Of a DNA stretch of 64,000 bases, positions 7,237-55,315 are shown piece after piece; within the stretch, counting starts at the first letter, position 1, and each line of letters starts with the position of its first letter. The translations under genes and the position numbers were made by a program. This stretch comes from a virus. Location: positions 1 through 64,000 of the IMG/VR virus record IMGVR_UViG_3300019458_000002; one strand, given 5' to 3'. The notes under the pieces are model-generated. The model was not told the origin of the DNA, searched no databases, and worked only from the letters and a program-made list of their open reading frames with translations.

Positions 7237-8340
7237 ATGGCACTTAAAGTACAAGAATTCCTCCGTAATGGAGGAACTTTAGAGCAGCTGGAGTCCCAGT
7301 ATGGGATTGTTGCCAAACGAGGCAAGTATCTGTGGCTTGTACTTCTAAAGTACGACATTGGCTCGCCCATGGGCGAAGAGATTGTACAGGAGTGTCGGGG
7401 GCTCATCCTTGATTCTGTCCGTAACTGGGACATCGTTTCATTCCCCTATAAGAAGTTCTTCAATCATGGGGAAGGGCATGCTGCTAAAATTGACTGGAAC
7501 ACTGCCAAAGTCTTTGAAAAGCTGGACGGAAGCCTATGTACGCTGTACTGGCACCAAAATGAATGGCATGTTTCGACCTCAGGAACTCCTGATGCCAACT
7601 GTCTAATTAACTACACAGAAAAGACATTTGCCATGCTTTTTTGGGAAGCCTGGGAGAAGATGGGTTACTGCAATCCAGACAACCTTCTTCGTGACCACTG
7701 CTATATGTTTGAGCTTTGTGCCAAAGAGAATCAGGTTGTAGTTCAGCACGATGAACTGCGTCTAGTTCTACATGGCATTAGAGAAATAGGACCAGAAAGC
7801 TGTTACTTAGAGATACCTATCGAAGGGTATTCTAACGTTTTTGAGCTAGCACAGACTTACTCTCTTACTTCCATGAAAGAGTGCCTTGATGCTGCAGAGC
7901 AATTTAATCCGATTCAGCATGAAGGGTTTGTTGTAGTCGATGGGAATTTCAACAGAGTTAAGGTGAAGGGCCTTAAATATGTGGCCCTGCACCACTTACG
8001 CTCTGACTTTAGTGAGCGTCGCATATTGGACCTTGTCCGCTTGGGCGAAGTTCCTGAAGTAGTGTCTTATTTCCCTGAAATGGGAGATAAGATTCAGGAA
8101 ATCAAAGGTAAGTACGAGCGAATCATTGAGGAGTGCGCATCTGAGTTTGAGCGTGCTTCAAAGGAAGCTGCATTCTCTATCACGGACGACTACAAAGTGC
8201 GCCGAAAGAAGTTTGCTGCAATTGCTGGGAAAAGCAAGTACCGCAGTGTACTCTTTGCAAAATACGATAACAGGGATATCAAGGATTTTGTTGACAACTT
8301 GCAAGTTGATGGTATACTGAACTGGATAAGGGATATGTAA
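7237..8340 (+). CDS. ATP-dependent RNA ligase (Rnl1/tRNA-ligase-like adenylyltransferase)
   Basis: 367 aa. Covalent nucleotidyltransferase motifs: I FEKLDGSL, IV HEGFVVVD, V RVKVKG. Confidence 0.7.
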   Translation: MALKVQEFLRNGGTLEQLESQYGIVAKRGKYLWLVLLKYDIGSPMGEEIVQECRGLILDSVRNWDIVSFPYKKFFNHGEGHAAKIDWNTAKVFEKLDGSLCTLYWHQNEWHVSTSGTPDANCLINYTEKTFAMLFWEAWEKMGYCNPDNLLRDHCYMFELCAKENQVVVQHDELRLVLHGIREIGPESCYLEIPIEGYSNVFELAQTYSLTSMKECLDAAEQFNPIQHEGFVVVDGNFNRVKVKGLKYVALHHLRSDFSERRILDLVRLGEVPEVVSYFPEMGDKIQEIKGKYERIIEECASEFERASKEAAFSITDDYKVRRKKFAAIAGKSKYRSVLFAKYDNRDIKDFVDNLQVDGILNWIRDM

Positions 8341-8343
8341 ATT

Positions 8344-8625
8344 ATGACCTCTAAAGATTTTTGTTACTGGTTACAGGGTTTCTTTGAATTGAGCGGAGGA
8401 GAAAAGCCGCTGACAGCACCACAGGTTAAGCAAATCAAGGCTCACCTCAACATGGTCTTCAAGCATGAAATTGACCCGTCATATGGAGATAAAGTCCATC
8501 AGGCCACTCTTCAAGAAATTCACGATGCCATTACAAAGAAAATAGAAGAGGCTCCAAAGCCCCCTAAGAAAGACCAGCCAGATTTTAAACATCCGTTTGA
8601 CCACGATATTCTAATTAGATGCTAA
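8344..8625 (+). CDS. Hypothetical protein
   Basis: 93 aa (FCYWLQGFFELSGG...), same-strand packing. Confidence 0.55.
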   Translation: MTSKDFCYWLQGFFELSGGEKPLTAPQVKQIKAHLNMVFKHEIDPSYGDKVHQATLQEIHDAITKKIEEAPKPPKKDQPDFKHPFDHDILIRC

Positions 8626-8636
8626 AGGAGAAACTA

Positions 8637-8864
8637 ATGGAAAAGAAAACTGCCGCAGAGGCCGCTGGTTCATTGCTAGGACTTATTTTTATGTCTCTTA
8701 TTTGGGCATTAGCTTTCAAGCTGGACGTAGAATTCTGGACTAATCATCTTGGACACTTCAGGCACGTCTCTATCCTTCCTGCGCTTCTAGCTGGTTTCCT
8801 TTTGCCTGGCAAGGTAATGTACTCGGCCTCAGCATTTACGCTGTGCTATTGGCTACTGACGTAG
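8637..8864 (+). CDS. Small membrane protein
   Basis: I prefer ATG 8637 (AAGGAG 7 nt upstream) over the track start at 8619. Two hydrophobic segments. Confidence 0.5.
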   Translation: MEKKTAAEAAGSLLGLIFMSLIWALAFKLDVEFWTNHLGHFRHVSILPALLAGFLLPGKVMYSASAFTLCYWLLT

Positions 8865-8871
8865 GTCTGCT

Positions 8872-9276
8872 ATGCCAGATAAATATAGTGCCCTGTCCTT
8901 CCGAATGAAGGGCAGATATGGGAAGGCTGTAGGTTGTGGAGCCTCACGTCGAGCCTTCAGGCACAAGAACATAATCATAAAGGTTCCTGTAAATGAAGCA
9001 GGAGTTTGGGATAACCAAAAAGAGGCGAGGGTCTATAGGGATTTTAAAAAGGGCTTAAAGCCATTTTATGTCCCTGCAGCATGCAAACTCATAGTTGACA
9101 AACAGTCTGGATTGCCCATATTATTCATGGAAAGACTTATTCCATTCAGGAGAACCTGGAACATAAGTAGGCTACCAGAATGGGTTAACGACCTTTGTGA
9201 TGCAGGACTCGATTTCTTTCAAGTAGGAAAGTCCTTAACTGGCGAAATTAAGTGCTACGATTACGCAATGGAATAG
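8872..9276 (+). CDS. Hypothetical protein (weak resemblance to a protein-kinase N-lobe)
   Basis: 134 aa. GCGASRRAF, IIIKV, QKEARVY and LFMERL are spaced like the G-loop, VAIK, helix-C Glu and hinge. No HRD/DFG motif, so the function is left open. Confidence 0.45.
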   Translation: MPDKYSALSFRMKGRYGKAVGCGASRRAFRHKNIIIKVPVNEAGVWDNQKEARVYRDFKKGLKPFYVPAACKLIVDKQSGLPILFMERLIPFRRTWNISRLPEWVNDLCDAGLDFFQVGKSLTGEIKCYDYAME

Positions 9277-9277
9277 T

Positions 9278-9928
9278 ATGAGATACAAATATCCAAGAAC
9301 CTTTCATTTCCCTACGTCGCCAGGTGCAGACAAAAGCGACAAGATTATGGAGGACACATCTGCCTTTGAGCCAAAGAAGGATGTCGTAGTTACTCTCAAG
9401 ATGGATGGAGAGAACACAACCCTTTATCATGACTATTGGCATGCCAGAAGCATGAACCAAAACCAGCATCTGTCCAGGAACTGGTTGGCTGCCTTTCATG
9501 CTTCCTGGCAACACCTTATCCCGCCTGAAGTGCGTATATGCGGAGAAAACCTATATGCTAAGCACTCAATCCACTACAAGAATCTTGCCTCGTATTTCCA
9601 AGTCTTTGGAATCTGGGAAGGCGATAAATGCTGGTCTTGGGAAGACACAAAGCAGTTCTGTCAAGACCTTAAACTAGAAACTGTACCAGTCGTTTCAGTG
9701 CAAAAATGGCAAGGGGAAACAGCAATGTATTGGCTATTTAAGGGTTTAGTTGAGACAGGATATTGCGAGGATGAGGTAGAGGGTCTGGTTGTTAGGTTGG
9801 CTGAGGAAATTCCTGTTGACAAATGGACCGCAAATGTGGGAAAATTCGTGAGGGAAAATCATGTCTCCACTGACCAACATTGGATGACAAAACCTGTAGT
9901 AAAAAACGGCCTGAAAATCAAGGAGTAG
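9278..9928 (+). CDS. RNA ligase family protein (minimal Rnl2/Rnl5-like nucleotidyltransferase)
   Basis: 216 aa. N-terminal YPRTFHFPTSPG, motif I LKMDGEN, motif IV VEGLVVRL, motif V GKFVRENH. Confidence 0.65.
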   Translation: MRYKYPRTFHFPTSPGADKSDKIMEDTSAFEPKKDVVVTLKMDGENTTLYHDYWHARSMNQNQHLSRNWLAAFHASWQHLIPPEVRICGENLYAKHSIHYKNLASYFQVFGIWEGDKCWSWEDTKQFCQDLKLETVPVVSVQKWQGETAMYWLFKGLVETGYCEDEVEGLVVRLAEEIPVDKWTANVGKFVRENHVSTDQHWMTKPVVKNGLKIKE

Positions 9929-9932
9929 GAAT

Positions 9933-10193
9933 ATGAGCAAAAAGCAAATCACCGTATGCATCACCGACAAAGACATTGACACCGGCAAGCCCCGCAGCCA
10001 GCGAGCCTGCCCAATCGCTAAGGCAGCAAAGCGCCATTCCAAGAATGGCAATGTTCGTGTTACGAATGACACTATTCTACTGAATGGCGTTCGTCATCCG
10101 CTGCCCCCAAAGGCTCAGGACTTTGTTGTCGATTTCGACAGCTATCGCTTCGTTTACCCATTCAAGTTCCACTTGCTCGTCAGCAAGAAGTAA
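9933..10193 (+). CDS. Small CP[IV]A-motif protein, paralog 1 of 4
   Basis: 86 aa: ITVCITDKDIDTGKPRSQRACPIAKAAKRH...PPKAQDFVVDFD...YPFKFHL. Confidence 0.6.
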   Translation: MSKKQITVCITDKDIDTGKPRSQRACPIAKAAKRHSKNGNVRVTNDTILLNGVRHPLPPKAQDFVVDFDSYRFVYPFKFHLLVSKK

Positions 10194-10195
10194 TT

Positions 10196-10456
10196 ATGAA
10201 GAAGCAAATTACTATCTGTGTGACTGCCAAAGACATCAGTTCTGGAAAGCAGGGTAGCTACACCAAGTGTCCTATTGCTTTGGCTGCTAAGCGCCATTCA
10301 AATGGAGGTAAGATACGAGTAGGATACAAGTTCCTGACACTCAATGGTCAGCAGGTTCAGCTTCCACCACTTGCTCAGGACTTTGTTACTTGGTTTGATA
10401 CAGGATATAACTACCTTGTACATCCTTTCAAGTTTCACGTAAGAATCGAGAAGTAA
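10196..10456 (+). CDS. Small CP[IV]A-motif protein, paralog 2 of 4
   Basis: 86 aa: ITICVTAKDISSGKQGSYTKCPIALAAKRH...PPLAQDFVTWFD...HPFKFHV. Confidence 0.6.
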   Translation: MKKQITICVTAKDISSGKQGSYTKCPIALAAKRHSNGGKIRVGYKFLTLNGQQVQLPPLAQDFVTWFDTGYNYLVHPFKFHVRIEK

Positions 10457-10458
10457 AC

Positions 10459-10722
10459 ATGTCAAAGAAAATTACCGTTACAGTAACGGCAAATGACATC
10501 AAGGCCTCTAAAAAGGCACTGAAGTCTGGTGAATGGCGCACCACCTGTTGCCCCGTAGCTCAGGCTCTACGGAGGCGATGGCCTGATGCTGGGGTGGGAA
10601 CTACTAACTTCACAAAGGGCTCTGGGCTCTATCAAAGCCTGCCAAAGAAGGCTATGGATTTCATCTATGATTATGACCAAGGGGTAGCAGTAAAACCATT
10701 CCGATTTACACTATGGGTCTAA
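10459..10722 (+). CDS. Small CP[IV]A-motif protein, paralog 3 of 4
   Basis: 87 aa: ITVTVTANDIKASK...CCPVAQALRRR...PKKAMDFIYDYD...KPFRFTL. Confidence 0.6.
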   Translation: MSKKITVTVTANDIKASKKALKSGEWRTTCCPVAQALRRRWPDAGVGTTNFTKGSGLYQSLPKKAMDFIYDYDQGVAVKPFRFTLWV

Positions 10723-11006
10723 TGTCTGAGAACACAACATATCAAAATGTAAAGCTCAACCCAATGGATTGGCACATTGGGTTGACTCCTACACAAATCT
10801 CTGTTAAGAGTGTACGTAGAAGTGATGGTCGTACAGTTACCAAGACCGTTGATTTCAAGGACACTGGTGTTTCTGATGCAACGGCAAATATGTGGTTACT
10901 TTTAGAAGAACTAGCTTCCACACTTTTGATGCCCTTTGACACAGTTACAATGCCTGATGGCAGAATGTATATGGCGCTCGTCCTGTTCCCGCATCCTGAG
11001 GCTTAA
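10722..11006 (+). CDS. Hypothetical protein
   Basis: ATG 10722 overlaps the upstream TAA (TAATG); the track start is 10713. Unrelated to the flanking paralogs. Confidence 0.5.
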   Translation: MSENTTYQNVKLNPMDWHIGLTPTQISVKSVRRSDGRTVTKTVDFKDTGVSDATANMWLLLEELASTLLMPFDTVTMPDGRMYMALVLFPHPEA

Positions 11007-11254
11007 TGAAAATTCAGGTCACACAAGAAGACATTGAAAAAGGAGTACGAAATGTATGCGCCTGGTGTCCTGTTGCGCGTGCAGCAACCAGGGCCTTTGG
11101 AAAGCCAATGAAAGCCATGCGCTGGCGCCTAGAAGATGTGGCTACTGGTGAGTGCATTGAAACTCCGAAAGAGGTTAGTCGCTGGATGTTTAAGTTCGAT
11201 GACCATCAGCCTGTGGAGCCTTTTGAATTTGAGGTGTCTGATGGACTGGTATAA
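11006..11254 (+). CDS. Small CP[IV]A-motif protein, paralog 4 of 4 (divergent)
   Basis: 82 aa: IQVTQEDIEKGVRNVCAWCPVARAATRA...PKEVSRWMFKFD...EPFEFEV. Confidence 0.55.
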   Translation: MKIQVTQEDIEKGVRNVCAWCPVARAATRAFGKPMKAMRWRLEDVATGECIETPKEVSRWMFKFDDHQPVEPFEFEVSDGLV

Positions 11255-12281
11255 AGGAAATTTGCTTTGGCTTCCAGAGCGTACAATATTTCTGACCAAG
11301 GCAGGTTCCCATGCCTATGGCACCAACATTGAAACCTCAGATATTGACTTACGAGGTGTTGCTATTCCACCCCGTGAATACTTCTTGGGTTTCCTAAAGC
11401 AATTTGAGCAAGCAGAAAGCAAAGACCCTTACGATGCCGTAGTCTACGACATCAGGAAGTTCTTCAAGCTCGCGTCTGCATGCAATCCAAACATCATAGA
11501 GCTTTTGTACTGTGACCCAATGGACTGGATGGTTCCAAATCCATTTAGTAGTGCATTGTCTCCATGGATTCTCATTCTTCAGCACCGAGACCTGTTTCTA
11601 TCTAAGAAGGCCAGATATACCTTCAGTGGATACGCAATGGCTCAGTTGAAGCGTATCAAGACCCATCGTAGATGGTTGCTTAATCCTCCAGCCAAAAAGC
11701 CAGACCGTTCTGACTTCGGACTTAGTCCACACAATGCCACTCTAAACAAAGAGGACATGGCATTGATTGAAAGTCAAATCAGGCGAGTTGAAGACACGCT
11801 AGGTGGCGAAGGTTTCACTAAGGACCGCGTTCAAGAGAACGATGACGAGATAGTGGTTCAGGTCGCAACCAAGCTGAACCTAGCCAAAGACCTTTTCCCT
11901 TTGATTATTGCAGAGCGTAAGTATAGGGCTGCCAGTCATGAGTGGGACCAGTACACAAAATGGAAAGAAGAACGTAACCCTGTCCGCTCTGCCCTAGAAG
12001 CAAAATATGGATATGACACAAAGCATGCTTCTCACCTTGTTCGGCTAATGCGTATGTGTACTGAAATCATGGAAAGTGGTGTCGTCCATGTTAAGCGGCC
12101 AGATGCAGAAGAACTAAAGGCTATTAGAGGGGGTAGCTGGACTTACGACCAGCTTATGGAATGGGCCACTGAGCAAGACACAAAGCTCAATGACACATAT
12201 CAAAAAAGCAGCTTGCGAAATAGTCCTGACCTTGATAAGATAGACGTACTACTAGTTTCAGTTGTTGAAAGATTTTTATGA
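11241..12281 (+). CDS. RlaP-like (RNA-repair-associated) Pol-beta superfamily nucleotidyltransferase
   Basis: I prefer ATG 11241 (MDWYKGNLLWLPERTIF); the track start at 11136 overlaps the upstream gene. Motif AGSHAYGTNIETSDIDLRGV gives the GS...DxD signature. Confidence 0.6.
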   Translation: MDWYKGNLLWLPERTIFLTKAGSHAYGTNIETSDIDLRGVAIPPREYFLGFLKQFEQAESKDPYDAVVYDIRKFFKLASACNPNIIELLYCDPMDWMVPNPFSSALSPWILILQHRDLFLSKKARYTFSGYAMAQLKRIKTHRRWLLNPPAKKPDRSDFGLSPHNATLNKEDMALIESQIRRVEDTLGGEGFTKDRVQENDDEIVVQVATKLNLAKDLFPLIIAERKYRAASHEWDQYTKWKEERNPVRSALEAKYGYDTKHASHLVRLMRMCTEIMESGVVHVKRPDAEELKAIRGGSWTYDQLMEWATEQDTKLNDTYQKSSLRNSPDLDKIDVLLVSVVERFL

Positions 12282-12460
12282 CCTGTAAAAGGTGTGGTCA
12301 AAAATACAAATCTTCTAAAGAAAAATGGAAGGACGATTTGAAGGATGTTTCAATTAGCACTCGAAGGACTATCAATTCTATAATAGATTTATTAGATGCA
12401 TTAGAAAAAGGTGGCCCACAAATGTGTGAAACATGCCACAATTTTGTGTTTTCAGAATAA
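12278..12460 (+). CDS. Small zinc-ribbon protein
   Basis: 60 aa. CKRCGQ ... CETCHNF. ATGA overlap with the upstream stop. Confidence 0.5.
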   Translation: MTCKRCGQKYKSSKEKWKDDLKDVSISTRRTINSIIDLLDALEKGGPQMCETCHNFVFSE

Positions 12461-12472
12461 GAAAGGGTACCA

Positions 12473-13618
12473 ATGCAAGACAATAAGTGGTGGAATAACA
12501 TCAATGCGCCAGCATACCACTCTGAAGGTGGATATCTGGACCAGGCATTTTCTGAAATGGCCCTCTCCTACGGGACATTGAAGGACGAAAACCTAACTCT
12601 TTACTCTCGTTCGTGTGAGGGTCCTCTAAAGGAAGAATTTATCAAGACCTTCTTGGCTTCCTTCGAAGCAAAGATGGCTGAGAAGGGCGGTCGTTTGTTG
12701 TATGATACGGTGTGGGGACGCAAAGTCGAAGGCAATAGCCGCGTCTACCTCATCAAAGACGGAATCTGCAATTTTCGTTTCGAAGACAATGCCTTTGATG
12801 TTCGTTTTTCTTCCTACGACAAGGACTGGATTGAGGAATTTTGCGCTTGGCTGAAGCCCCTTGTTGGAGCTAAGGTCAGTCATGGCAAGGCTTACGTGAT
12901 TGTGTCGGGTGTTGAAGGGCCTTCTCTGACTTCCATTGGTGTGGCATCCGTGAATTTTGAACCAGGCAACTACACAAAGGACGTAACAGATGGCTTTCGC
13001 CATGTCATCACAGACCTGAAGACCGTGACCCCTAGTGGACGAGTGGCCATTCTCGATGGAGAACCAGGAACAGGCAAGACCTTCCTTATTCGGTCTCTAC
13101 TCAAGGAAGTTCCTGATGCTATTTTCATCATGGTGGCTGCAGGAGCAATTGAAATGCTCACTTCTCCAAACTTGGTTCCTCTGTTGATTCGTACAAAGCG
13201 TGAGTCAACGGTCCCCATTGTCTTCGTAATTGAAGACGCCGATGCCTGTCTGGTGCCACGCGCAGCTGACAATGTCAACGCAATCAGTACGCTACTGAAC
13301 TTCTCTGACGGTATCCTGGGTTCGCTTCTGGATATTCGTATCATTGCCACCACCAATGCCAAAATCACAGAGATTGATAAGGCAATACTACGGCCAGGCC
13401 GCCTTAGCCGTCGCATCGATGTGTCTCGCCTGAATCCATCTCATGCAGTCGAAGTCTTCAAGCGTCTGACCGGCAAGGACCCTGAAGCTGGCCAGCTTGA
13501 TGCTAAGCGTGGGAATACTTTGGCTGAGATTTACTCTATGGCTCGCGATAACGGATACGTGCCTCCTGCGGCTAACAACAAAATCGGCTTCCACAACGAC
13601 TTCCCTGACTTCGACTAA
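12473..13618 (+). CDS. AAA+ ATPase
   Basis: 381 aa. Walker A GEPGTGKT, Walker B VFVIEDAD, sensor/Arg region RPGRLSRRIDV. Unassigned N-terminal domain of about 190 aa. Confidence 0.8.
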   Translation: MQDNKWWNNINAPAYHSEGGYLDQAFSEMALSYGTLKDENLTLYSRSCEGPLKEEFIKTFLASFEAKMAEKGGRLLYDTVWGRKVEGNSRVYLIKDGICNFRFEDNAFDVRFSSYDKDWIEEFCAWLKPLVGAKVSHGKAYVIVSGVEGPSLTSIGVASVNFEPGNYTKDVTDGFRHVITDLKTVTPSGRVAILDGEPGTGKTFLIRSLLKEVPDAIFIMVAAGAIEMLTSPNLVPLLIRTKRESTVPIVFVIEDADACLVPRAADNVNAISTLLNFSDGILGSLLDIRIIATTNAKITEIDKAILRPGRLSRRIDVSRLNPSHAVEVFKRLTGKDPEAGQLDAKRGNTLAEIYSMARDNGYVPPAANNKIGFHNDFPDFD

Positions 13619-13806
13619 TGGCAAGGGACCTTGTCCGCATTAGGAATGTCTGTCCAAAATGCGGAGCCCAGAGATTCCTACTCCACAAAAACTATGGAGA
13701 CACTTTAGAAGAGTGGAATGCTTACGTAAAAAGACAGAAGGAAAAGGAGCCTACACGTTACGCCTGCGACAGATGTACGAAGGTTCCGACTTATGATGAC
13801 GAATAA
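13618..13806 (+). CDS. Small zinc-ribbon protein
   Basis: 62 aa. CPKCGAQ ... CDRCTK. TAATG overlap. Confidence 0.5.
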   Translation: MARDLVRIRNVCPKCGAQRFLLHKNYGDTLEEWNAYVKRQKEKEPTRYACDRCTKVPTYDDE

Positions 13807-14191
13807 ACGCAAAATAGCTATTGTAGGCAGTCGTGACTTCGCCAAACTAGAACTGGTGGATGCGCTCATTTACAAACTGAACAAAGACGAGCACGAAATA
13901 GTGTCTGGAGGCGCAGTAGGAGTAGATACTCAGGCTCAGAACACAGCTATTCTAAATGGCTTTGAAGTTCAGATATTCTACCCAGACTGGAGCCAGGGCA
14001 AGGGTGCAGGTATTGCCCGAAATAGCGACATTGTGGCTTACGCTGACGATGTTTACGCCTTCTATGATGGCAAAAGCAGGGGCACGCTAGATAGCATGAG
14101 AAAGGCTGTAGCAGCAGGCAAGCTACGCCGGGTCTTCAACGAACATGAAGAAGCTAAAGATATTATTCCTAGCCCTGACCCTGTCGTGTGA
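13793..14191 (+). CDS. SLOG-superfamily (DUF2493/DprA-like Rossmann) protein
   Basis: 132 aa: IAIVGSRDF...IVSGGAVGVDTQAQ...GAGIARNSDIV. Confidence 0.55.
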   Translation: MMTNKRKIAIVGSRDFAKLELVDALIYKLNKDEHEIVSGGAVGVDTQAQNTAILNGFEVQIFYPDWSQGKGAGIARNSDIVAYADDVYAFYDGKSRGTLDSMRKAVAAGKLRRVFNEHEEAKDIIPSPDPVV

Positions 14192-16015: not shown

Positions 16016-16272
16016 TACTCACCCAGGTATTCTTCGCCCCTTTTGCCCTTCTTTTTTGAAGGTGCAGGAGCAGGCGTGCGAGTTAGGTGCCGAGTAGCTA
16101 CCCACTTAGTCGCGGCATTGCCTCCGACATAGATTGCGCATACGGAAATGAGGCCCATTACGACTTCGCTAAAGATAGCGGCAGGAATGAAAAGGCCTGA
16201 CAGAATTACAGAAAGACTGGTTCCTACACAGAACCACATTTTACGGCTAGTTACGCCACCATCGCTCATCAT
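16015..16272 (-). CDS. Small two-TM membrane protein
   Basis: 85 aa. Two hydrophobic helices and a Lys-rich tail (PSKKKGKRGEE). Confidence 0.55.
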   Translation of the reverse strand: MMSDGGVTSRKMWFCVGTSLSVILSGLFIPAAIFSEVVMGLISVCAIYVGGNAATKWVATRHLTRTPAPAPSKKKGKRGEEYLGE

Positions 16273-16298
16273 ACCCTAAAGATTAGGGCTTGGCGCTG

Positions 16299-16664
16299 TT
16301 ATGGGAACAGAGTCCAGATTAGGGTGAGAACCTTTTGTCCCAATATGGCTAATGCGCCTGCTGCCATTAGCCATAAACCCTTCTTTAGGTTTGCGCTAAA
16401 CCTGCTTCTACGTTCTTCTACGACTTCAAGGGCGGCAACTCGTTTGTTTGCTGCCTCAAGTTCAGTATCTGTCTTTTCTAGCTTCTCAGTAAGAGGCTTA
16501 ATAAGGCCTTCGATTTTATCGCTTATTTGGGCAAATCCCTCAGATACCTGAATCGTTAAATGCTGAAGCTGTACACCTTGCTTAGCGATTTCGGCGGCGT
16601 CTTCTTCTAGACGCTGCAGCCGCTCTTCGTGAGCCTGTACTTGGTCGTTATTGCTACCAGACAT
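16299..16664 (-). CDS. Coiled-coil protein with C-terminal membrane anchor
   Basis: I prefer ATG 16664 (MSGSNNDQVQ...); the track start at 16712 is TTG. C-terminal GLWLMAAGALAILGQKVLTLIWTLF. Confidence 0.5.
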   Translation of the reverse strand: MSGSNNDQVQAHEERLQRLEEDAAEIAKQGVQLQHLTIQVSEGFAQISDKIEGLIKPLTEKLEKTDTELEAANKRVAALEVVEERRSRFSANLKKGLWLMAAGALAILGQKVLTLIWTLFP

Positions 16665-16701: not shown

Positions 16702-17715
16702 TTACTCGTCAACTTTGTTTAGGTCATTTGCACAGTTGATATGGCAAGGAAACTTGTCGTTCACGCTTCTAGCGTACATATGCTCGGTATATTTCCCGCA
16801 CATATAGCAATTAAGTTTGGATGACCTACCATTGACTAGTGGAGCATCTTCCATTCTAGGATAGTCCTTTGGTGTTTCTTCTAAGTCAAAGTTAAAGTCA
16901 ATGTCGTGCTTGTGGTCTGCACGGCTGATTCTATCAAGGTCAGACCCATATGTTGGGTGGTTGTAAGGCTTTTGATGTTCTGAGAAGCGGTCAATCTCCT
17001 CAGGGGATGCAGTTTCTCGTTTGGCTCCAGGTAGAGACATTTCGTTCCAACCATCGGTAACAGGAATTGGAACATCTCCAATTCCAGGAGAAGCATTAAC
17101 TTCTGGTGCCTTGCAACAAGCGCAGGGTATGACAATGTCGGACCTATATAGTTTTTCAATATCGGACTTATACAGTTTTATGTGGCTATTATCATAAACC
17201 ACATTACGCATGACAGGAGATAAGTCTTCAATGTAGAGTCCTGCTCCCTGTGTTAGCTTACCTGGAGGCACATTGTAGTTACCGGCTTCTAGAGCCTTAA
17301 CTAGTTGCTGGATTCTGTGTTCTAAAGAAATAGCTGCATAGTCCTGAGGCGAAAGAACTAGTTGCTCGGGCTCTCCAAAGCTCTCTTCCATAATCTTCTT
17401 AGCTTCATCGAAAGCCTTCTTATCAAGCTCCATGGAGCAGCTGAAGTCAAATGAAGTTCCTTGATTGTGAGAGGATAGAGAAGGCTCCCAAATGTCATAC
17501 CAGCTATCTGTATCTTCTAAAATTTCCTCACGCAACTTCCACCCTTGAAGCTCATAAACGCCATTCTTCTCGTCCTCTTTACCAAAGTTCATAATGAGCT
17601 TTTGTCCAGGACCCGTTGGCGGTGGCGCTATACAGAATTCTCCAGAGTGACCGCGAGTCTCGCAGTCCTTCGTCTTTTCATGTGGACATACTTCCCAGAG
17701 GTAGTTTATTCCCAT
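16702..17715 (-). CDS. Cys-rich hypothetical protein carrying one fibre-type RADHKHD motif
   Basis: 337 aa. ISRADHKHDIDF matches the repeat unit of fibre 32337..34268. Several CxxC-like pairs (CACC, CYMCG, CHINC). Confidence 0.55.
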   Translation of the reverse strand: MGINYLWEVCPHEKTKDCETRGHSGEFCIAPPPTGPGQKLIMNFGKEDEKNGVYELQGWKLREEILEDTDSWYDIWEPSLSSHNQGTSFDFSCSMELDKKAFDEAKKIMEESFGEPEQLVLSPQDYAAISLEHRIQQLVKALEAGNYNVPPGKLTQGAGLYIEDLSPVMRNVVYDNSHIKLYKSDIEKLYRSDIVIPCACCKAPEVNASPGIGDVPIPVTDGWNEMSLPGAKRETASPEEIDRFSEHQKPYNHPTYGSDLDRISRADHKHDIDFNFDLEETPKDYPRMEDAPLVNGRSSKLNCYMCGKYTEHMYARSVNDKFPCHINCANDLNKVDE

Positions 17716-17721
17716 GATTAC

Positions 17722-18183
17722 TTATAGCCCGCTTTCCCTTAAGCGCTTATCTGCCTCGTACAAGATTCCTTTCTTGTTAGTCCACTCTTGGGATTCATGC
17801 TTCACATCAGCCTTACCTGTTTTTACGAAAAAGTAGGCGTGCAGGAGTTCATGGCTAAAGGCCGTACGACTAAAATTAGCTTTCTTTGGCCACGCTATCA
17901 TTGTCGCAAAGGGCCAAAACAAACCATTCACGCAATGGTCTTTTTCCTTGCTAAGCGGATTCCAGAAGCTGTTGCAGTCATTGCAAGTTAAATCAGGGGC
18001 TTCAACCCAAATAATCTTTGGTGGCAAGCCCTGCATGCCATAGACCTCGTTCCAGACTATTTTGATAGCGTCTTCTTGTCCAGGCTTAACGCTATCATGA
18101 AGGCCCTTGCCTCTAGGTGAAGTCCTGCCTATGACAAATCCAAGGTATAAACAAAAAGCGGCTAACAGTGCTATAGCAATCAT
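17722..18183 (-). CDS. Membrane-anchored HExxH metallopeptidase-like protein
   Basis: 153 aa. N-terminal TM segment MIAIALLAAFCLYLGFVIG. Motif FSHELLHAYF. Resembles 47133..47735. Confidence 0.6.
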   Translation of the reverse strand: MIAIALLAAFCLYLGFVIGRTSPRGKGLHDSVKPGQEDAIKIVWNEVYGMQGLPPKIIWVEAPDLTCNDCNSFWNPLSKEKDHCVNGLFWPFATMIAWPKKANFSRTAFSHELLHAYFFVKTGKADVKHESQEWTNKKGILYEADKRLRESGL

Positions 18184-18201
18184 CTACAGCTAAGATTGGA
18201 G

Positions 18202-18315
18202 TTGACCCGGAAGGAATCGAACCTTCAACCGCTAGAGTGTTTAATCTTGCTGTTGATATTCCATACGGAATACCGTTGGTTTATGTCTAATGCTCTACCA
18301 TTGAGCTACAGGTCA
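18202..18315 (-). tRNA. tRNA-scaffold gene (114 nt) with about 42 extra nt in the anticodon loop; anticodon unresolved
   Basis: TGACCTG-TA-GCTC-AATGGTA-GAGC-A-TTAGA-[49 nt, including hairpin GGTATTCC-GTAT-GGAATATC]-TCTAG-CGGTT-GAAGG-TTCGATT-CCTTC-CGGGTCA-A. Parsed by hand. Confidence 0.55.
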
Positions 18316-18324
18316 ATAAAATTG

Positions 18325-18394
18325 AGCCCCAGGCAGGAGTTGAACACTGCGACCTCCGGTTTATTTCCGGTGCTCTACGCTGAGCTACTGAGGC
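18325..18394 (-). tRNA. Compact tRNA-scaffold gene (70 nt) with non-canonical anticodon loop AAAUAAA
   Basis: GCCTCAG-TA-GCTC-AGCGTA-GAGC-ACCGG-AAATAAA-CCGGA-GGTC-GCAG(T)G-TTCAACT-CCTGC-CTGGGGC-T. No U33, and the D loop is only 6 nt. Confidence 0.5.
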
Positions 18395-18413
18395 TTAAGC
18401 TAGATTAGGATTG

Positions 18414-18519
18414 AGTCCTAGGTTGGATTCGAACCAACGCCCTTCAGCTAAAGGCTGACGCTCTACCTTTGTGGTTTTCATTAATCTAGAATCTTTGCCA
18501 CGGCCTGAGCTACTAGGAC
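18414..18519 (-). tRNA. tRNA-scaffold gene (106 nt) with about 35 extra nt in the D loop; anticodon unresolved (loop CUUUA)
   Basis: GTCCTAG-TA-GCTC-[43-nt D loop with GTGG...CCAC helix]-GAGC-G-TCAGC-CTTTA-GCTGA-AGGGC-GTTGG-TTCGAAT-CCAAC-CTAGGAC-T. Confidence 0.55.
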
Positions 18520-18523
18520 ATTG

Positions 18524-18644
18524 GCGGGGCAGAGAGACTTGCACTCTCGCATGGCGGCACCATTAGCATTATTTTGCTGGATGTATTCGTTAAACGGAAT
18601 ACAGTTTTTGCAAGCCGCTGCCGTACTATCTTGGCTATGCCCCG
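18524..18644 (-). tRNA. tRNA-Cys(GCA)-like gene (121 nt) with a 48-nt insertion directly 3' of the anticodon loop
   Basis: CGGGGCA-TA-GCCA-AGATAGTA-CGGC-A-GCGGC-TTGCAAA-[48 nt]-GCCGC-CATGC-GAGAG-TGCAAGT-CTCTC-TGCCCCG-C. The TTGCAAA loop is canonical for Cys. Confidence 0.6.
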
Positions 18645-18650
18645 CGTATT

Positions 18651-18923
18651 TTAATTTTCTCTACACTCTATTCGCCACTCATTTGACCAACGCTTGAATT
18701 TTGCACCTGAATCCAGGCAGTTATCGAGGTAATTGAATTCACCTACGACAGTCTTTTTACCTGAGGCTGTTGTAACGATAAGCTTCCATGGAGGCTCTGG
18801 AACTGCTATTCCAAAATCTCCTCTGAGATAAGGGGTTGCGCAACCCGCAAACATGCTACCTACCAAGAAGATAAAGAACAATAGCAAAAACAGCCAGAAG
18901 GCCCTTATGACTTTATTTGCCAT
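18651..18923 (-). CDS. Putative lipoprotein
   Basis: 90 aa. Signal peptide ending in the lipobox FAGC (LVGSMFAGCA). Confidence 0.6.
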   Translation of the reverse strand: MANKVIRAFWLFLLLFFIFLVGSMFAGCATPYLRGDFGIAVPEPPWKLIVTTASGKKTVVGEFNYLDNCLDSGAKFKRWSNEWRIECREN

Positions 18924-19164
18924 ATTGCCCGCAATGCCTCTTAAAGACTGTGTGCCACTTTTCTTCCCAGTTGCAGTCGCTACTAGTGCAAATCATTCTA
19001 CCAATCAGACACTCAGTAACGGTTTCACCTGCATACTTTGTATTGTTCTTTCGGCACTCCAAAACTAGCCCACGGTTTGCCATAACCGTCTCTGGTGTCT
19101 GGCATGGTCCAGATGCACACCCTGCGATGGTCATTGCAGAAAGTAGAATAATTAGTTTTACCAT
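18913..19164 (-). CDS. Putative Cys-rich lipoprotein
   Basis: I prefer the internal ATG at 19164 (MVKLIILLSAMTIAGCASGP, lipobox IAGC). The 140-aa track ORF has an implausible N-terminus. Confidence 0.5.
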   Translation of the reverse strand: MVKLIILLSAMTIAGCASGPCQTPETVMANRGLVLECRKNNTKYAGETVTECLIGRMICTSSDCNWEEKWHTVFKRHCGQYGK

Positions 19165-19174
19165 GAGTAAAATT

Positions 19175-19375
19175 CTATACCTCAAAACAAAAATCGTCAA
19201 TAATTCCATCAGTAAAGTAGGTGAAGCACATATCTGTTTCTGGGTCATAATCAATGCACCATCCATCAGGCGATGTACTATGTGCAGAGGCAATGAAATT
19301 AGCTCCAGCAGCAGTTCCAAGAGTGACACATCCACTTATTGTGTATCCATCATTCTTATATTTCTTTTTACTCAT
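19175..19375 (-). CDS. Small hypothetical protein
   Basis: 66 aa. Fills the gap downstream of the promoter at 19475-19503. Confidence 0.4.
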   Translation of the reverse strand: MSKKKYKNDGYTISGCVTLGTAAGANFIASAHSTSPDGWCIDYDPETDMCFTYFTDGIIDDFCFEV

Positions 19376-19474
19376 GATGTTTCCAAAATTCGTGTAACCA
19401 GGCGGTACGGCGGCTCCGCGACATGGGCGCTACCCATCACATCTCCGATTCCTGATGCTACAGGCTACAGACAA

Positions 19475-19503
19475 AGAATAGCAAATTAAGCTTACTCTGT
19501 CAA
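19475..19503 (-). promoter_or_regulatory. Sigma70-like promoter (leftward)
   Basis: Minus strand TTGACA (19503-19498), 17-nt spacer, TATTCT (19480-19475). Followed by a GC-rich leader of about 95 nt. Confidence 0.45.
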
Positions 19504-19797
19504 CTAGATATCAGAGGCTTTTCTTTGACGCAGATGGTCTCTAGACTTAAGCTCCAGATATGACCACTCTTTCTTAGAACCTACACTATCTACAATCCAG
19601 CCCTTACTCGGGGTCCTGGTCTCCGCAGCTGGTGAATCAGAGGGCCATTGCAGCTTTGCGTGAGTCACAAATGTAATGTCAATAATGTGCCCAGGCTTAG
19701 CAAACTCATTAGGAATCCAAGCTACGTGGCGTTGAATACTGCCATCGCTCAATGTCCTGCTCATTGAGCATTGGGCGTAAACGTCCTTCTTTGCCAT
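19504..19797 (-). CDS. Hypothetical protein
   Basis: 97 aa. TAATG-type overlap with the upstream gene. Confidence 0.55.
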   Translation of the reverse strand: MAKKDVYAQCSMSRTLSDGSIQRHVAWIPNEFAKPGHIIDITFVTHAKLQWPSDSPAAETRTPSKGWIVDSVGSKKEWSYLELKSRDHLRQRKASDI

Positions 19798-20099
19798 TAC
19801 TGTGGCTTGCTAGTGGTTACAATAATGAAGTCGGGACCGTCAGCAAATACCTCAACTAGTAGACGTGTGTCAACACCCTGAACAGTAGCAATTACATAAG
19901 CAGAACCTACGGCTAGTGCTGTAATTGTAACCTGAGTCGAAACTGGATTGGTGGCGCTAATGATTAGGGCGTTGCTGACTGTCCAAATTGGGTCTGGATA
20001 AGTGTCTGCAGGAAACGAGGTAGCGTTAGCTATGGTTGTTTGACCAACCCTCATTTTGAGTCTGGGGTATTCGAAGGGAATTTTAGCGTTTCCTAGCAT
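19797..20099 (-). CDS. Ig-like (Big_2-like) domain protein
   Basis: I prefer ATG 20099, 11 nt after the upstream stop. Beta-rich TVSNALIISATNPVSTQVTITALAVGSAYVIATVQG. Confidence 0.45.
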   Translation of the reverse strand: MLGNAKIPFEYPRLKMRVGQTTIANATSFPADTYPDPIWTVSNALIISATNPVSTQVTITALAVGSAYVIATVQGVDTRLLVEVFADGPDFIIVTTSKPQ

Positions 20100-20981: not shown

Positions 20982-21318
20982 GCTGGGTTGGACGGGCTTT
21001 GACCTTGATGGAACACTTGCCGAGTATCATGGCTGGACTGGAAACCCATACCACATTGGTAAGCCTATTCCAGCAATTGTAGATATTGCTAAGGATTTGC
21101 TCGCAAAAGGACAACCAATCAAAATTCTGACTGCACGAGCATGTATTTATGACCCAAATACGCTTGTAGCCATTGAAGAGTGGTGTGAAGAGCATTTAGG
21201 TCAGGTTGTGCCAATTACCTGCCAGAAGGATTATAATATGGAGCGACTTTACGACGACAGAGCAGTCCAGGTTGAAACAAATACCGGAAGAATTATCCAG
21301 GATGCCAAGACAGATTAG
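20956..21318 (+). CDS. HAD-superfamily phosphatase (T4 Pnkp-phosphatase-like DxDxT)
   Basis: 120 aa. Motif I GFDLDGTLAEY, motif II KILTAR, acidic motif YDDR. The start could instead be ATG 20968. Confidence 0.6.
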   Translation: MKAQMKNSKLGWTGFDLDGTLAEYHGWTGNPYHIGKPIPAIVDIAKDLLAKGQPIKILTARACIYDPNTLVAIEEWCEEHLGQVVPITCQKDYNMERLYDDRAVQVETNTGRIIQDAKTD

Positions 21319-21715
21319 AACTGCCGAATGTCATCCAGAGCGTAAACACTTTGGAAAGAATAAGTGCAAAAACTGCTATGACAAAGAATACGCAAAGAAT
21401 AATAGAGCTAGAATAAACGCAACTTCCAGAAAATGGGCCAAAAACAATCATAAAAAAGTTCTTGCAATATCTAGAAAGTATCTTTACGGGATAGACGACA
21501 TCCATGTGAGGGCTTTATTGAGAGCCCAAGATGGGGTTTGTAAAATCTGCATGAAAGAACCAGCGAGTCATCTAGACCATGACCATAAGAACGGAATGCC
21601 AAGAAGTCTACTGTGCGGACCTTGCAATCAGGGTCTAGGATTCTTTAAAGAGAATGTTCAGTCATTACAAAATGCTGTCAAATATTTAGAATTATGGAAG
21701 GACTGGTACGAATAA
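21302..21715 (+). CDS. Endonuclease VII / HNH-type homing endonuclease
   Basis: I prefer ATG 21302; the track start at 21206 overlaps the upstream gene. Motif HLDHDHKNGMPRSLLCGPCNQGLG. Confidence 0.7.
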   Translation: MPRQIRTAECHPERKHFGKNKCKNCYDKEYAKNNRARINATSRKWAKNNHKKVLAISRKYLYGIDDIHVRALLRAQDGVCKICMKEPASHLDHDHKNGMPRSLLCGPCNQGLGFFKENVQSLQNAVKYLELWKDWYE

Positions 21716-48397: not shown

Positions 48398-50644
48398 TTA
48401 CCTGGCCCCTGGCTCTCTTGAGGATGTTGCGTGTATGGCAGGGTCTTGGCTCAAGATTTTACCGGCTCTCATTTGCTTAAATGACGAACTACCATCAATA
48501 TGCGCAACTTTAATTTTCCCATTTAATTCTGTTCCTACTGGCAGATTGAGGTTGCGGTGTGCAGACTTTGTTTCTTTTTCTAGTACTCCAGGAGGCTTGG
48601 CATCAGGATTTTCTGATGGGTCTAGCTCTGAATGACCCTCCATCTCAGCCTTGAGCGTGTATCTGTACGCACCAAAGGCCTCATCAAATGAACGTGGGTC
48701 ATTATCGTCATCAAGGCCTCCTCCTGGAGCAGGCTCCTGAGCTTCAGCCACGTATTCCATGCCATGCTTAGCCGCAAGCTTTGAATGAACTTTGTGGGCT
48801 AGTGTTGAATGGTCATCTCCCTGGACCTCGTTAGCATGATGCTTATTCTTGGCATGAGCCATGAGAGCTTCATATGCAGCTAACCCAAGGCCCTTGCCTC
48901 TGTGTTCAGGGTCTAATTGAGAAAAAGTTGTATGTAAGTACTTGCCATCGTTGTCGCTATGGACTCTACCCGATACATAACCAATATCATTGTCTTGAGA
49001 TGGCTTCTCTCCATTTGGAGTATGGTGGAGTCTGGCTCGTAAAATATTGGTTGCACCCATATGGGTGTCATGAAGTACCATTTTGTATTTTTTCTTATCA
49101 GGAAGAACGTGGGAATAGTCGTACATTGCCTTTGGGTTTCCGCCAGCAGAACGAGCACCAGATACCTTCAAACCAATTGGAATATCCTTGAGCGCCATCT
49201 TCACAAGCTCAGACTTCAACTGGTAGTTATAGGGACTGTAAGCACTATCAAAATCCTTCTGAGGCCCAAAATGCTCTCGTGCAGCCTGATACTGCATACC
49301 GTGTTTTTGTGCAAGTTTCTCATGGACGGCATGTGCAGCAGTCGAATGTCTACCGCCTTCAACCGTAGTAGCTTCTAAGAAATTTTTACCATGAGCAAAC
49401 AATGCCTCATACATGGCTGTACCAAGACCCTTACCTCGGTACTCTGGGTCCATCTCACTCATACCAGGGCTAATACTACGATTTTCCTTGCGGTAGTCTC
49501 CTGAAATATGGCCTACTTCAGCTTTACCATGATGAACTGTTGCAAATACATGTCCTCCAAAATCATTGGTAACATCGTCGTGCGCAATATAGACTTTGTA
49601 GCCCTTGTTCTTCAGTTCCTTAGGAAGCACATGAGAATAATCAAAGTGCTCTGTTCCTTCTGGAGAACGCACACGCTTTCCAATAGGTATATCACTTACA
49701 GCCATCTTCTCAAATGGCTCTTCGGACTTACTGACTTTTGGGTTTGTGTCTTCGCTGCCTCCATCATTCCCAGGCACACGGGCTGTGCTAGCCGATAATT
49801 CACGGGCCATAGCAATGACACCTTGTACAAGCCGCATAATGGAACCATAGGTATCTGGGGCAGTCTGTTTAATTTGAGCTAATATGGGGGCTTGCTGCTT
49901 TACGGATTGTAGAATTTGGGCTACTTGGTTGCGAAGGTCATCATGGTTTTTAGCTTTGTTACTTTGCTCATCCATGTCCTGCTTACCTTGAGCCTGAGCA
50001 AGCTTATGAAAGTGCTTCTCAGCATCAGCTTCAGCGTGAGTCATCTCAGGTTGTGGAGGAGGCCGGTTTTCATCAATCATCTGATACAGGCTCTGGGCCT
50101 CAGAATGTTCACCGCTCATCTTGGGCTGTTGCTTACTGGGCTCTGAACGATATGCGCCCTTACCTAAATACTCGGACACAATTTTCTTCTGACTGGGTTC
50201 AGGGTTCTGCTTAGCAGACTCAATTTCTTTGTCAAATTCAGGGGACCAGAAAATAATGCGGTCTTTACCACGAAGCTTAGCAACAAGCAAGGCTTTTGCG
50301 CTTTCAGACAATTTTAGGCCCACACCTACAGAAACTGTAGCGCCTACAGCCGTTGCATACTGCTCTCTGAACTTAGGAATTTGGTCAATTGCGGAAGCAG
50401 GTATTTCTAGCCGCACCTCATCACCACCGGCCTCGATGACCGACCCCCCACAATTCTCTGCAAAGCTCTTCCAGATTTCATTTCCTCGGTTTATGTCCTG
50501 GTTAATCTTACGGATTTTCTCTACATCGTCTTCCAAAGTAGCTAGTCCTACTACTCTTCCAATGTCATCACCATCGATTGAGACAAACAAATTCATAGCT
50601 CTAAGATTGTGTTGACCGCCTGTAGGTTTTTTTGCTATATTCAC
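48398..50644 (-). CDS. Multidomain protein: N-terminal mCpol/GGDEF-like palm domain + two GNAT acetyltransferase-like domains
   Basis: 748 aa. FVSIDGDDIGRVV ... GGSVIEAGGDEVRLEI ... VSVGVGL ... AKLRGKDRI, then a duplicated module with YRGKGLGTAMYEAL and HRGKGLGLAAYEAL. Confidence 0.55.
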   Translation of the reverse strand: MNIAKKPTGGQHNLRAMNLFVSIDGDDIGRVVGLATLEDDVEKIRKINQDINRGNEIWKSFAENCGGSVIEAGGDEVRLEIPASAIDQIPKFREQYATAVGATVSVGVGLKLSESAKALLVAKLRGKDRIIFWSPEFDKEIESAKQNPEPSQKKIVSEYLGKGAYRSEPSKQQPKMSGEHSEAQSLYQMIDENRPPPQPEMTHAEADAEKHFHKLAQAQGKQDMDEQSNKAKNHDDLRNQVAQILQSVKQQAPILAQIKQTAPDTYGSIMRLVQGVIAMARELSASTARVPGNDGGSEDTNPKVSKSEEPFEKMAVSDIPIGKRVRSPEGTEHFDYSHVLPKELKNKGYKVYIAHDDVTNDFGGHVFATVHHGKAEVGHISGDYRKENRSISPGMSEMDPEYRGKGLGTAMYEALFAHGKNFLEATTVEGGRHSTAAHAVHEKLAQKHGMQYQAAREHFGPQKDFDSAYSPYNYQLKSELVKMALKDIPIGLKVSGARSAGGNPKAMYDYSHVLPDKKKYKMVLHDTHMGATNILRARLHHTPNGEKPSQDNDIGYVSGRVHSDNDGKYLHTTFSQLDPEHRGKGLGLAAYEALMAHAKNKHHANEVQGDDHSTLAHKVHSKLAAKHGMEYVAEAQEPAPGGGLDDDNDPRSFDEAFGAYRYTLKAEMEGHSELDPSENPDAKPPGVLEKETKSAHRNLNLPVGTELNGKIKVAHIDGSSSFKQMRAGKILSQDPAIHATSSREPGAR

Positions 50645-52015: not shown

Positions 52016-52102
52016 TCCCTGGTCATCTAGCGGAACAAGACCAAGTTCGGATACTAAATCCGTTTCCTTGGAACGTTGGTTCGAATCCAACCTAGGGAGC
52101 CA
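52016..52102 (+). tRNA. tRNA-scaffold gene (87 nt, CCA encoded) with an extended or interrupted anticodon arm; anticodon unresolved
   Basis: TCCCTGG-TCA-TCT-AGCGGAACA-AGA-CCAAG-TT-CGGAT-ACTAA-ATCCG-TTTC-CTTGG-AAC-GTTGG-TTCGAAT-CCAAC-CTAGGGA-G-CCA. Confidence 0.55.
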
Positions 52103-55227: not shown

Positions 55228-55303
55228 GCTTGCATACGCTCAGTTGGTAGAGCATCTGGAGTGATGATTCAGAAGGTCGCGGGTTCGAGTCCCGCTGCGA
55301 GCA
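55228..55303 (+). tRNA. tRNA-Ile(GAU)-like gene with atypical geometry
   Basis: GCTTGCA-TAC-GCTC-AGTTGGTA-GAGC-A-TCTGGA-GTGATGA-TTCAGA-AGGTC-GCGGG-TTCGAGT-CCCGC-TGCGAGC-A. The connector is 3 nt and the anticodon stem 6 bp. Confidence 0.6.
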
Positions 55304-55315
55304 CAAGGGATAAAT

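Follow-up and report, generated by a model that had tools for sequence, protein, structure and literature searches.

The minus strand of a 64,000-nt stretch of viral DNA (IMG/VR record IMGVR_UViG_3300019458_000002, positions 1 to 64,000; in the following, the window) carries at 18524-18644 a tRNA-shaped gene, read from 18644 to 18524, in which a 48-nt insert sits directly 3' of a Cys(GCA)-type anticodon loop. The RNA of this Cys-type gene has a tRNA-like fold, its body and insert are under purifying selection, the insert module recurs as a paralogous copy in a second tRNA-like gene, most of the neighbouring genes are non-decoding, and no signature of a known intron or ribozyme is present. Our best reading, to which we give less than even confidence, is that of a tRNA-scaffolded non-decoding RNA that retains its module. 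Insert-bearing tRNA genes have already been noted in huge phages; the present case is small and well defined.

Anatomy and detection of the Cys-type gene

The 5' part of the gene (18607-18644, minus strand) comprises the acceptor strand CGGGGCA, a 3-bp D arm (GCC...GGC), the anticodon-stem strand GCGGC and the 7-nt loop TTGCAAA, and the 3' part (18524-18558, minus strand) the strand GCCGC, the variable loop CATGC, the T arm GAGAG-TGCAAGT-CTCTC, the acceptor strand TGCCCCG and a discriminator C. The full minus-strand read is CGGGGCA TA GCC(A) AGATAGTA (C)GGC A GCGGC TTGCAAA, then the 48 nt AACTGTATTCCGTTTAACGAATACATCCAGCAAAATAATGCTAATGGT, then GCCGC CATGC GAGAG TGCAAGT CTCTC TGCCCCG C, and all the elements named in the original prediction for this gene (the GCGGC/GCCGC stem, the TTGCAAA loop, the insert of 48 nt, CATGC, and a TGCAAGT loop with G55) are found in it. 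Acceptor, D, anticodon and T stems form a cloverleaf that is kept in an ortholog (see below), and GCA occupies positions 34-36 as expected of a tRNA-Cys anticodon. With G55 in the T loop and no GG in the D loop, the T54-Psi55-C56/G18G19 elements are lacking.

When introns are allowed (-i), ARAGORN reports tRNA-Cys(gca) at c[18523,18644] with a 48-nt intron at 37/38, which bears out the predicted insertion directly 3' of a GCA-type anticodon loop; the insert boundary lies inside a run of A's and may equally be drawn at 37/38 or 38/39. By default ARAGORN makes no call for the gene, and with the insert in place the Rfam tRNA model RF00005 (gathering score 29 bits) gives no match on 18524-18644 even at E<=10; once the insert is deleted, default ARAGORN calls tRNA-Cys. 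ARAGORN -i made no call on 30 shuffled windows (1.92 Mb in total), and the identical DNA, with zero differences, is found in a second assembly (Logan SRR7811943). Annotators should take note that default tRNA finders miss such genes, while intron-aware ones label them as ordinary tRNAs, which they may not be.

Conservation in a related phage

The window corresponds to bases 95526-159525 of a 171,731-bp metagenome contig in ENA. Its genes are those of a large myovirus (tail sheath, ClpP-like prohead protease, head-decoration-like protein), the sheath being 45.6% identical to that of Myxococcus phage Mx1, and these proteins place the window with the bacterial-type Mx1-like myophages. The relative L168 (ENA ERZ27254861) encodes a ClpP 72% identical to that of the window, and L080, a second contig from the sample of L168, a sheath that is 93% identical. 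A syntenic tRNA-like cluster is present in L168, and its first gene is the ortholog of the Cys-type gene with the same insert (...GGCAGCGGC-TGCAAAAACTGTATTCCGTAGGAATACATGCAGCAAAACAAAAGCAATGGTGCCGCC...).

Between the two copies of the gene the 5' part is 89%, the insert 79% and the 3' part 83% identical, and a run of about 40 nt is the same save for one indel, while the neighbouring tRNA-like genes reach 57-62% and the open reading frame (ORF) just upstream of the Cys-type gene only 46%. Such conservation of insert and body next to a far more divergent ORF argues for selection on the whole RNA, and the sequences indicate that it has acted, insert included, since the window phage and L168 diverged. 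All 27 base pairs (cloverleaf plus insert hairpin) form in both copies, which differ by three compensatory double changes (two in acceptor pairs, one in a T-stem pair) and by one change to G-U; slid controls showed no compensatory changes. Cloverleaf and insert hairpin are recovered independently by RNAalifold on both copies, and this comparative fold returns GCGGC/GCCGC as the anticodon stem, just as predicted. Conservation and paired changes together exclude a dead pseudogene.

The insert module and its paralogous copy

The 48-nt insert (18559-18606, minus strand) is composed of AAC, a hairpin, CAGCAAAA, a variable stretch and AATGGT, and it scores 76.1 bits with R1, the covariance model of the three arms known to carry the module. 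Its hairpin (18582-18603, minus strand) joins TGTATTC to GAATACA over 7 bp around the loop CGTTTAAC; it folds, and both L168, where the loop is 3 nt, and the paralog described next have kept it. By alignment and pattern search, a single-stranded CAGCAA motif (18574-18579, minus strand) is invariant in all three module copies.

The second tRNA-like gene (18202-18315, minus strand) has a 41-nt paralogous insert (18238-18278) after the loop CATAAAC and is detected by the Rfam tRNA model (54.7 bits), by ARAGORN -i and by R1 (63 bits); according to Rfam, 48 nt separate its anticodon-stem strands. Its body (TGACCTG...CGGGTCA) is unrelated to that of the Cys-type gene. Common to both inserts are AAC-N-GTATTCCGT, the hairpin and CAGCAA, with AAC and CAGCAA invariant between them, and the window has two occurrences of the insert motif where 0.00 are expected. 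In the paralog the hairpin strands are GGTATTCC and GGAATATC instead of TGTATTC and GAATACA, so that pair 1 changes from U-A to G-C, which is compensatory, and pair 2 from G-C to a G-U wobble. Compared with shuffles, the full-length RNAs have fold z-scores of -2.44 and -3.66, the latter for gene 18315-18202. RNAalifold adds a 3-bp helix of the loop UGC with the GCA of CAGCAA in the Cys-type gene only; as the paralog keeps CAGCAA without a complementary anticodon, UGC/GCA pairing does not explain the motif.

The inserts are flanked by short direct repeats of anticodon-side bases (18238-18285 and 18559-18613, minus strand). In the second gene the repeat is TAAAC...TAAAC; the Cys-type gene has GCAA...GC(T)AA, which in L168 is an exact GCAA repeat. 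Target-site duplication is one possible origin, chance in A-rich sequence another.

Beyond these three copies the module was found in none of the collections searched. Over about 1 Mb (this genome and 48 related loci) R1 returned the three known copies only, and on the whole genome of the Lak megaphage Lak-A1 one 27-bit match, apparently in coding sequence and with no tRNA features nearby. When the gene, its spliced form and the paralog were compared by BLAST with 50,697 phage records, Lak-A1 included, no similar insert came up and the similarity seen was solely of the generic tRNA kind, to D29 tRNA-Asn for the paralog and to Phabba tRNA-Trp for the spliced form. Among the 186 tRNAs of 84 Mx1-like phage loci, gathered by sheath similarity, there was one 12-nt 'intron' call and no module copy. 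A motif scan of IMG/VR (GTATTCCGT..ATA..CAGCAA) yielded 78 matches, which is near the expected number, and these lack tRNA context and are put down to chance; the matches to a tighter motif of all three copies (TTGCTGNNNNTATTCN{3,9}GGAATACNGTT) are likewise put down to chance, and of them JGI metagenomes contained one, IMG/VR none and GTDB genomes two. For the neighbouring proteins of 153 and 337 aa, IMG/VR offered no relatives at all and the protein database hardly any.

Decoding capacity and the case for splicing

In its body the Cys-type gene is similar to tRNA-Cys genes that related Mx1-like phages have without interruption (loop CTGCAAA/C), and G55 also occurs in the tRNA-Cys of the related locus L094 (T loop TGCGAAT) and in the tRNA-His of L154. 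By its sequence, the gene is derived from tRNA-Cys. Its discriminator is C73, in the window and in L168 alike, whereas all four tRNA-Cys genes of related phages have T73. U73 is the major identity element for cysteinyl-tRNA synthetase (CysRS), so an RNA with C73 instead should be a poor CysRS substrate. The anticodon loop itself differs between the two copies. In the window a 5-bp stem holds the loop TTGCAAA with U33 and a purine at 37, while L168 has CTGCAAAA where the window has CTTGCAAAA, that is, one T fewer before GCA, and the same stem is followed by TGCAAA. This leaves the L168 loop one base short on an unchanged 5-bp stem, and hence no excision there gives a Cys tRNA. The original prediction of a tRNA-Cys(GCA) accordingly survives as regards shape, GCA and kinship to phage tRNA-Cys genes, but a working tRNA-Cys is disfavoured by C73, the short loop of the ortholog and the non-decoding neighbours.

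G at 18645 could pair with C73 (18524) and create an 8-bp, His-like acceptor end, as it could in L168 (~1475/~1591). An alternative junction, UUG|UGGU, would produce a His GUG anticodon that fits this G-1:C73 end; we did not adopt it, as L168 is again one base short and the paralog is without an equivalent.

A competing explanation, which we regard as possible if rather doubtful, is that the insert is a spliced mini-intron. A host or phage nuclease would cut the 48 nt out at or near 37/38, and an RNA ligase of the phage T4 Rnl1 type (with RlaP or other end-healing if needed) would rejoin the halves into a decoding tRNA, the insert being a small mobile element. Much of the above can be read in this way, including the ARAGORN intron at 37/38, the ordinary tRNA-Cys call upon insert removal, exons that resemble uninterrupted tRNA-Cys genes of related phages, the textbook loop of the window copy, the module at the same site in a second gene and purifying selection on the insert. 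Further points in its favour are an Rnl1-type ligase encoded 10 kb away, a third gene (52016-52102) in which 14 extra bases follow the canonical loop TTCGGAT, and the precedent of the 'enigmatic introns' of Lak megaphages. It is weakened by the lack of a bulge-helix-bulge (BHB) fold and of any ribozyme or group I signature (see below), by C73 in place of U73, by the L168 loop and by the second carrier, where A33 and a UAA anticodon stand on a class I body. Most cluster neighbours, moreover, are non-decoding, the 186 tRNAs in the 84 related loci are essentially intron-free, and we know of no bacterial or phage pathway that removes such an insert. We hold it to be unlikely that the module represents a novel sort of mobile mini-intron which targets the 3' side of tRNA anticodon loops and whose removal takes an endonuclease together with the phage Rnl1-type ligase and perhaps RlaP. 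The unspliced junction sequences are GGCTTGCAAAAACTGTATTCC and GCTAATGGTGCCGCCATG, and the predicted spliced ones GCGGCTTGCAAAGCCGCC and GCGGCTTGCAATGCCGCC, with GCGGCTTGTGGTGCCGCC as the alternative.

Comparison with known introns, ribozymes and tRNA-like RNAs

From the position of the insert an intron of the archaeal/eukaryal type had been implied, and a BHB fold suggested as its check. Using as criterion two 3-nt bulges that are separated by a 4-bp helix and bracket the splice sites, a strict scan found no BHB in the window copy, the L168 ortholog and genes 52016 and 18414-18519; constrained folds gave none either and display the hairpin alone. The sole strict match, in the arm of 18315-18202, does not bracket its insert. 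No EndA-like or other splicing endonuclease domain was detected by Pfam among 40 window ORFs. In a bacterial-type phage, with neither BHB nor splicing endonuclease in these ORFs, the implied intron type is not upheld. The insert is like archaeal and eukaryal pre-tRNA introns, which are removed by EndA/TSEN plus a ligase, in its site directly 3' of the anticodon, its shortness and a possible 3-4-bp (U)UGC/GCA(A) pairing, but unlike them in all the respects just named and in the absence of this pairing from the paralog.

Group I introns are ~200 nt or longer and contain P1-P9 helices. Those of cyanobacterial tRNA-Leu(UAA) and Azoarcus tRNA-Ile share with our insert the location in the anticodon loop of a bacterial-type tRNA; with 48 nt, one hairpin and no Rfam match at E<=10, we reject a group I intron. 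Hammerhead, twister, pistol, hatchet and HDV-like ribozymes were without a match, and cmscan of 17000-20000 at E<=10 delivered tRNA matches and noise only. That the insert is a small self-cleaving or self-splicing ribozyme, or a BHB intron cut by a splicing endonuclease, is thus highly improbable. Its position beside the anticodon loop and its conserved single-stranded motifs are all that such a proposal can draw on, and it meets with a missing BHB in both the window and L168 copies, no Rfam family match at E<=10, a length of 41-48 nt far under group I size, a bacterial-type virus and 40 ORFs free of an EndA-like domain.

Closer in kind are the tRNA genes of Lak megaphages, which carry 'enigmatic introns' (Devoto et al., bioRxiv 10.1101/356790 / Nat Microbiol 2019). 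As in Lak, the interruption lies in the anticodon region, intron-aware finders are needed to see it and inserts are kept between related phages, so that in operational terms the Cys-type gene belongs to the Lak-type class. It differs in that no sequence or model similarity to Lak-A1 is apparent, that the host lineage is another one and that the phage belongs to the Mx1-like group. Here, one defined module of 41-48 nt sits on two bodies amid non-decoding neighbours, whereas the introns which ARAGORN -i finds in Lak-A1 are heterogeneous (15-143 nt). New with respect to the Lak phenomenon are this defined, recurrent module and the clearly non-decoding neighbourhood.

YrlA and other Y RNA-like molecules offer a second comparison, as in them, too, a non-decoding arm replaces that of the anticodon while the acceptor, T and D modules are tRNA-like; they are met in or next to phage tRNA clusters and near RNA-repair genes. 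The topology here is not permuted, however, and no Rsr/Ro60 gene is seen in the window. A match to the YrlA family itself (RF02553) was rejected: at 18.8 bits against a threshold of 69 it is an artefact that bridges two tRNA-like genes in tandem. The distant Mx1-like phage L103 encodes, at 16028-16368 and 16740-17000, a transfer-messenger RNA (77.8 bits) and, just downstream, a YrlA-like permuted tRNA domain consisting of T arm, acceptor stem closed by TTCG, and D arm, which is flanked by three copies of a ~22-nt AGTGATAGAGACGGTTACTTC-like motif.

Stable RNAs that mimic tRNA have a precedent in phage T4, whose tRNA cluster encodes species 1 and 2. In engineered 'tRNA scaffold' RNAs, a foreign RNA is placed in the anticodon arm and the tRNA body supplies processing and stability; the Cys-type gene likewise has an unrelated structured insert in this arm, but in a natural, conserved arrangement.

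Neighbouring tRNA-like genes

The Cys-type gene is the first of four tRNA-like genes on the same strand within about 450 bp (18644-18202), two of which, 18315-18202 (54.7 bits, see above) and 18394-18325 (39.8 bits), exceed the Rfam tRNA threshold. Between them and the Cys-type gene lies 18414-18519 (minus strand; partial Rfam match, 25 bits), which has a ~37-nt D-loop insertion and an 'anticodon' hairpin of 5 bp and 5 nt (CTTTA). Its ortholog in L168 (1594-1696) scores 35.7 bits, with a D-loop insert of 39 nt and a 4-nt loop, and compensatory changes between the two occur in all four stems. A similar RNA, again with compensatory changes, is found in L103 (16647-16732), so that three Mx1-like phages have it; across them the D-loop hairpin insertion measures 28-39 nt and the miniature 'anticodon' hairpin 3-5 bp with a 4-5-nt loop, and TTCTAGA is common to the D-loop inserts of the window and L168. 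For this gene ARAGORN offers class II tRNAs, Ile(aat) for the window copy and Ser(aga) for that of L168, readings which we rejected, the two folds being in different registers.

The third gene in the cluster (18325-18394, minus strand) is 70 nt long and has a 4-bp anticodon stem with the loop AAATAAA, which lacks U33, as well as a bulged T in its T stem; A-rich loops of the ATAAA type recur in gene 18315-18202. Of its two relatives in L168, one (1715-1801) has a 12-bp arm with the loop TTAAAAAT and the other (1808-1877) a 4-bp arm with the loop ATATAAA; this last copy is the exception, as it has U33 and is called tRNA-Tyr(ata) by ARAGORN. L168 has two additional tRNA-like genes with tetraloop arms. 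Taken together, the other cluster members have anticodon loops of 4, 4 and 5 nt, one 12-bp arm and one D-loop insert. Each neighbour is a cloverleaf with compensatory changes between window and L168, yet with an aberrant anticodon arm, and judged from these arms most cluster members are unable to decode.

This picture would also suit decaying remnants of an Mx1-type tRNA cluster, kept solely as RNase P/Z processing signals for an operon and with a functionless insert, a reading to which we give little credence. It accounts for acceptor, D and T stems being kept by compensatory changes while the anticodon arms vary widely in length, for a cluster set tightly between ORFs of its own strand, from which 7 and 19 nt separate it, and for one canonical tRNA in ~94 kb here as opposed to the large canonical clusters of Mx1 and L103. 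Under drift, on the other hand, one would not expect the insert and anticodon stem-loop of the Cys-type gene to rank with the most strongly conserved stretches of the locus (79% for the insert vs 46-62% nearby), nor the module to have been copied to a second body with hairpin and motifs intact.

Elsewhere in the window, 52016-52102 (plus strand) has a tRNA-Gln-like body (T1:A72, G73, encoded CCA) whose anticodon-stem strands are 21 nt apart and, at 26.6 bits, falls just below the Rfam threshold. The stretch between these strands can be read in two ways: a canonical Pro loop (TTCGGAT) followed by 14 inserted nt, or a 5-bp extension hairpin whose tip loop has CTA at its centre. The single fully canonical tRNA in ~94 kb of this genome is Ile-GAT (55228-55304, plus strand), while Mx1 and L103 carry at least 20, which suggests from gene content that the lineage lost most of an ancestral tRNA cluster.

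RNA-repair genes and other genomic context

Both the window phage and L168 encode RNA ligases and RlaP 6-11 kb from the tRNA-like cluster. In the window these are a T4 Rnl1-type RNA ligase (7237-8340, plus strand; Pfam RNA_lig_T4_1 2.2e-18, phrog_562 1.5e-46), a second RNA ligase of the PF09414 family (9278-9928, plus strand; Pfam RNA_ligase 1.7e-26) and the nucleotidyltransferase RlaP, an RNA-ligase-associated Pol-beta (11136-12281, plus strand; Pfam RlaP 3.1e-19, phrog_388 1.4e-61). The T4 homologue Rnl1 seals broken anticodon loops, and its counterpart here is a candidate sealing enzyme, or partner, for the cluster. RlaP extends damaged RNA 3' ends by one or two nucleotides and aids in restoring repaired tRNAs (PMC12776372), and such repair kits have been read as answers to host anticodon nucleases (PMC7824862).

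The three genes form a block with an AAA ATPase gene (7237-13618, plus strand) that is syntenic in L168 and in the related locus L164. A small DprA/SLOG-like protein is encoded at 13793-14191. At 21206-21715 (plus strand), 2.5 kb from the cluster, there is an ORF with an Endonuclease VII domain, possibly a free-standing nuclease of the homing type; in L080 other small ORFs occupy the syntenic region. Further away, 48398-50644 (minus strand) encodes a 748-aa protein with minimal CRISPR polymerase (mCpol) and GNAT acetyltransferase domains, mCpol being present in the related loci L081 and L082 as well. A few kb beyond the right end of the window, the same contig (L165, 2779-6372) codes for two PI3/PI4-kinase-like proteins and one Gad2-family protein.

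Discussion

Our preferred, albeit tentative, reading of the Cys-type gene as a tRNA-scaffolded non-decoding RNA would see it as one of four (window) to six (L168) such small RNAs, transcribed together with the flanking minus-strand ORFs. The tRNA body would direct end processing by RNase P and RNase Z and confer stability, while the module 3' of the loop, a 7-8-bp hairpin between single-stranded AAC and CAGCAA(AA), would be retained, and the altered anticodon arm may present hairpin and CAGCAA to a protein or RNA partner. The RNA might then distract a host nuclease that targets tRNA, as its decoy or competitor, or else serve the repair enzymes as a cofactor or a mimic of their substrates. Since the phage carries a repair kit for anticodon loops, the likeliest arena for any such role is tRNA-cleavage conflict.

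Several observations do not sit easily with insert retention. In the window copy the insert is directly preceded by a textbook anticodon stem-loop (5 bp, U33, GCA, A37), as in an interrupted working tRNA gene, and the insertion of one module at the same site in two tRNA bodies is typical intron behaviour. In L168 a stem slipped by one register, AGCGG/CCGCC with an A-C mismatch, could restore the loop CUGCAAA. As for the paired changes, 55 of 500 shuffles reach the observed covariation values, statistics that are weak with two genomes and three module copies only.

Were the module a mobile mini-intron after all, tRNAs of a bacterial virus would be spliced by cut-and-reseal, which would account for the 'enigmatic' introns of phage tRNAs and would tie RNA-repair enzymes to routine tRNA maturation. 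Two outcomes would each be of interest: the RNA could turn out to be a naturally occurring 'tRNA scaffold' displaying functional RNA modules, perhaps as decoys or cofactors in tRNA-cleavage conflict, or it could reveal a new protein-dependent splicing route in bacterial viruses.

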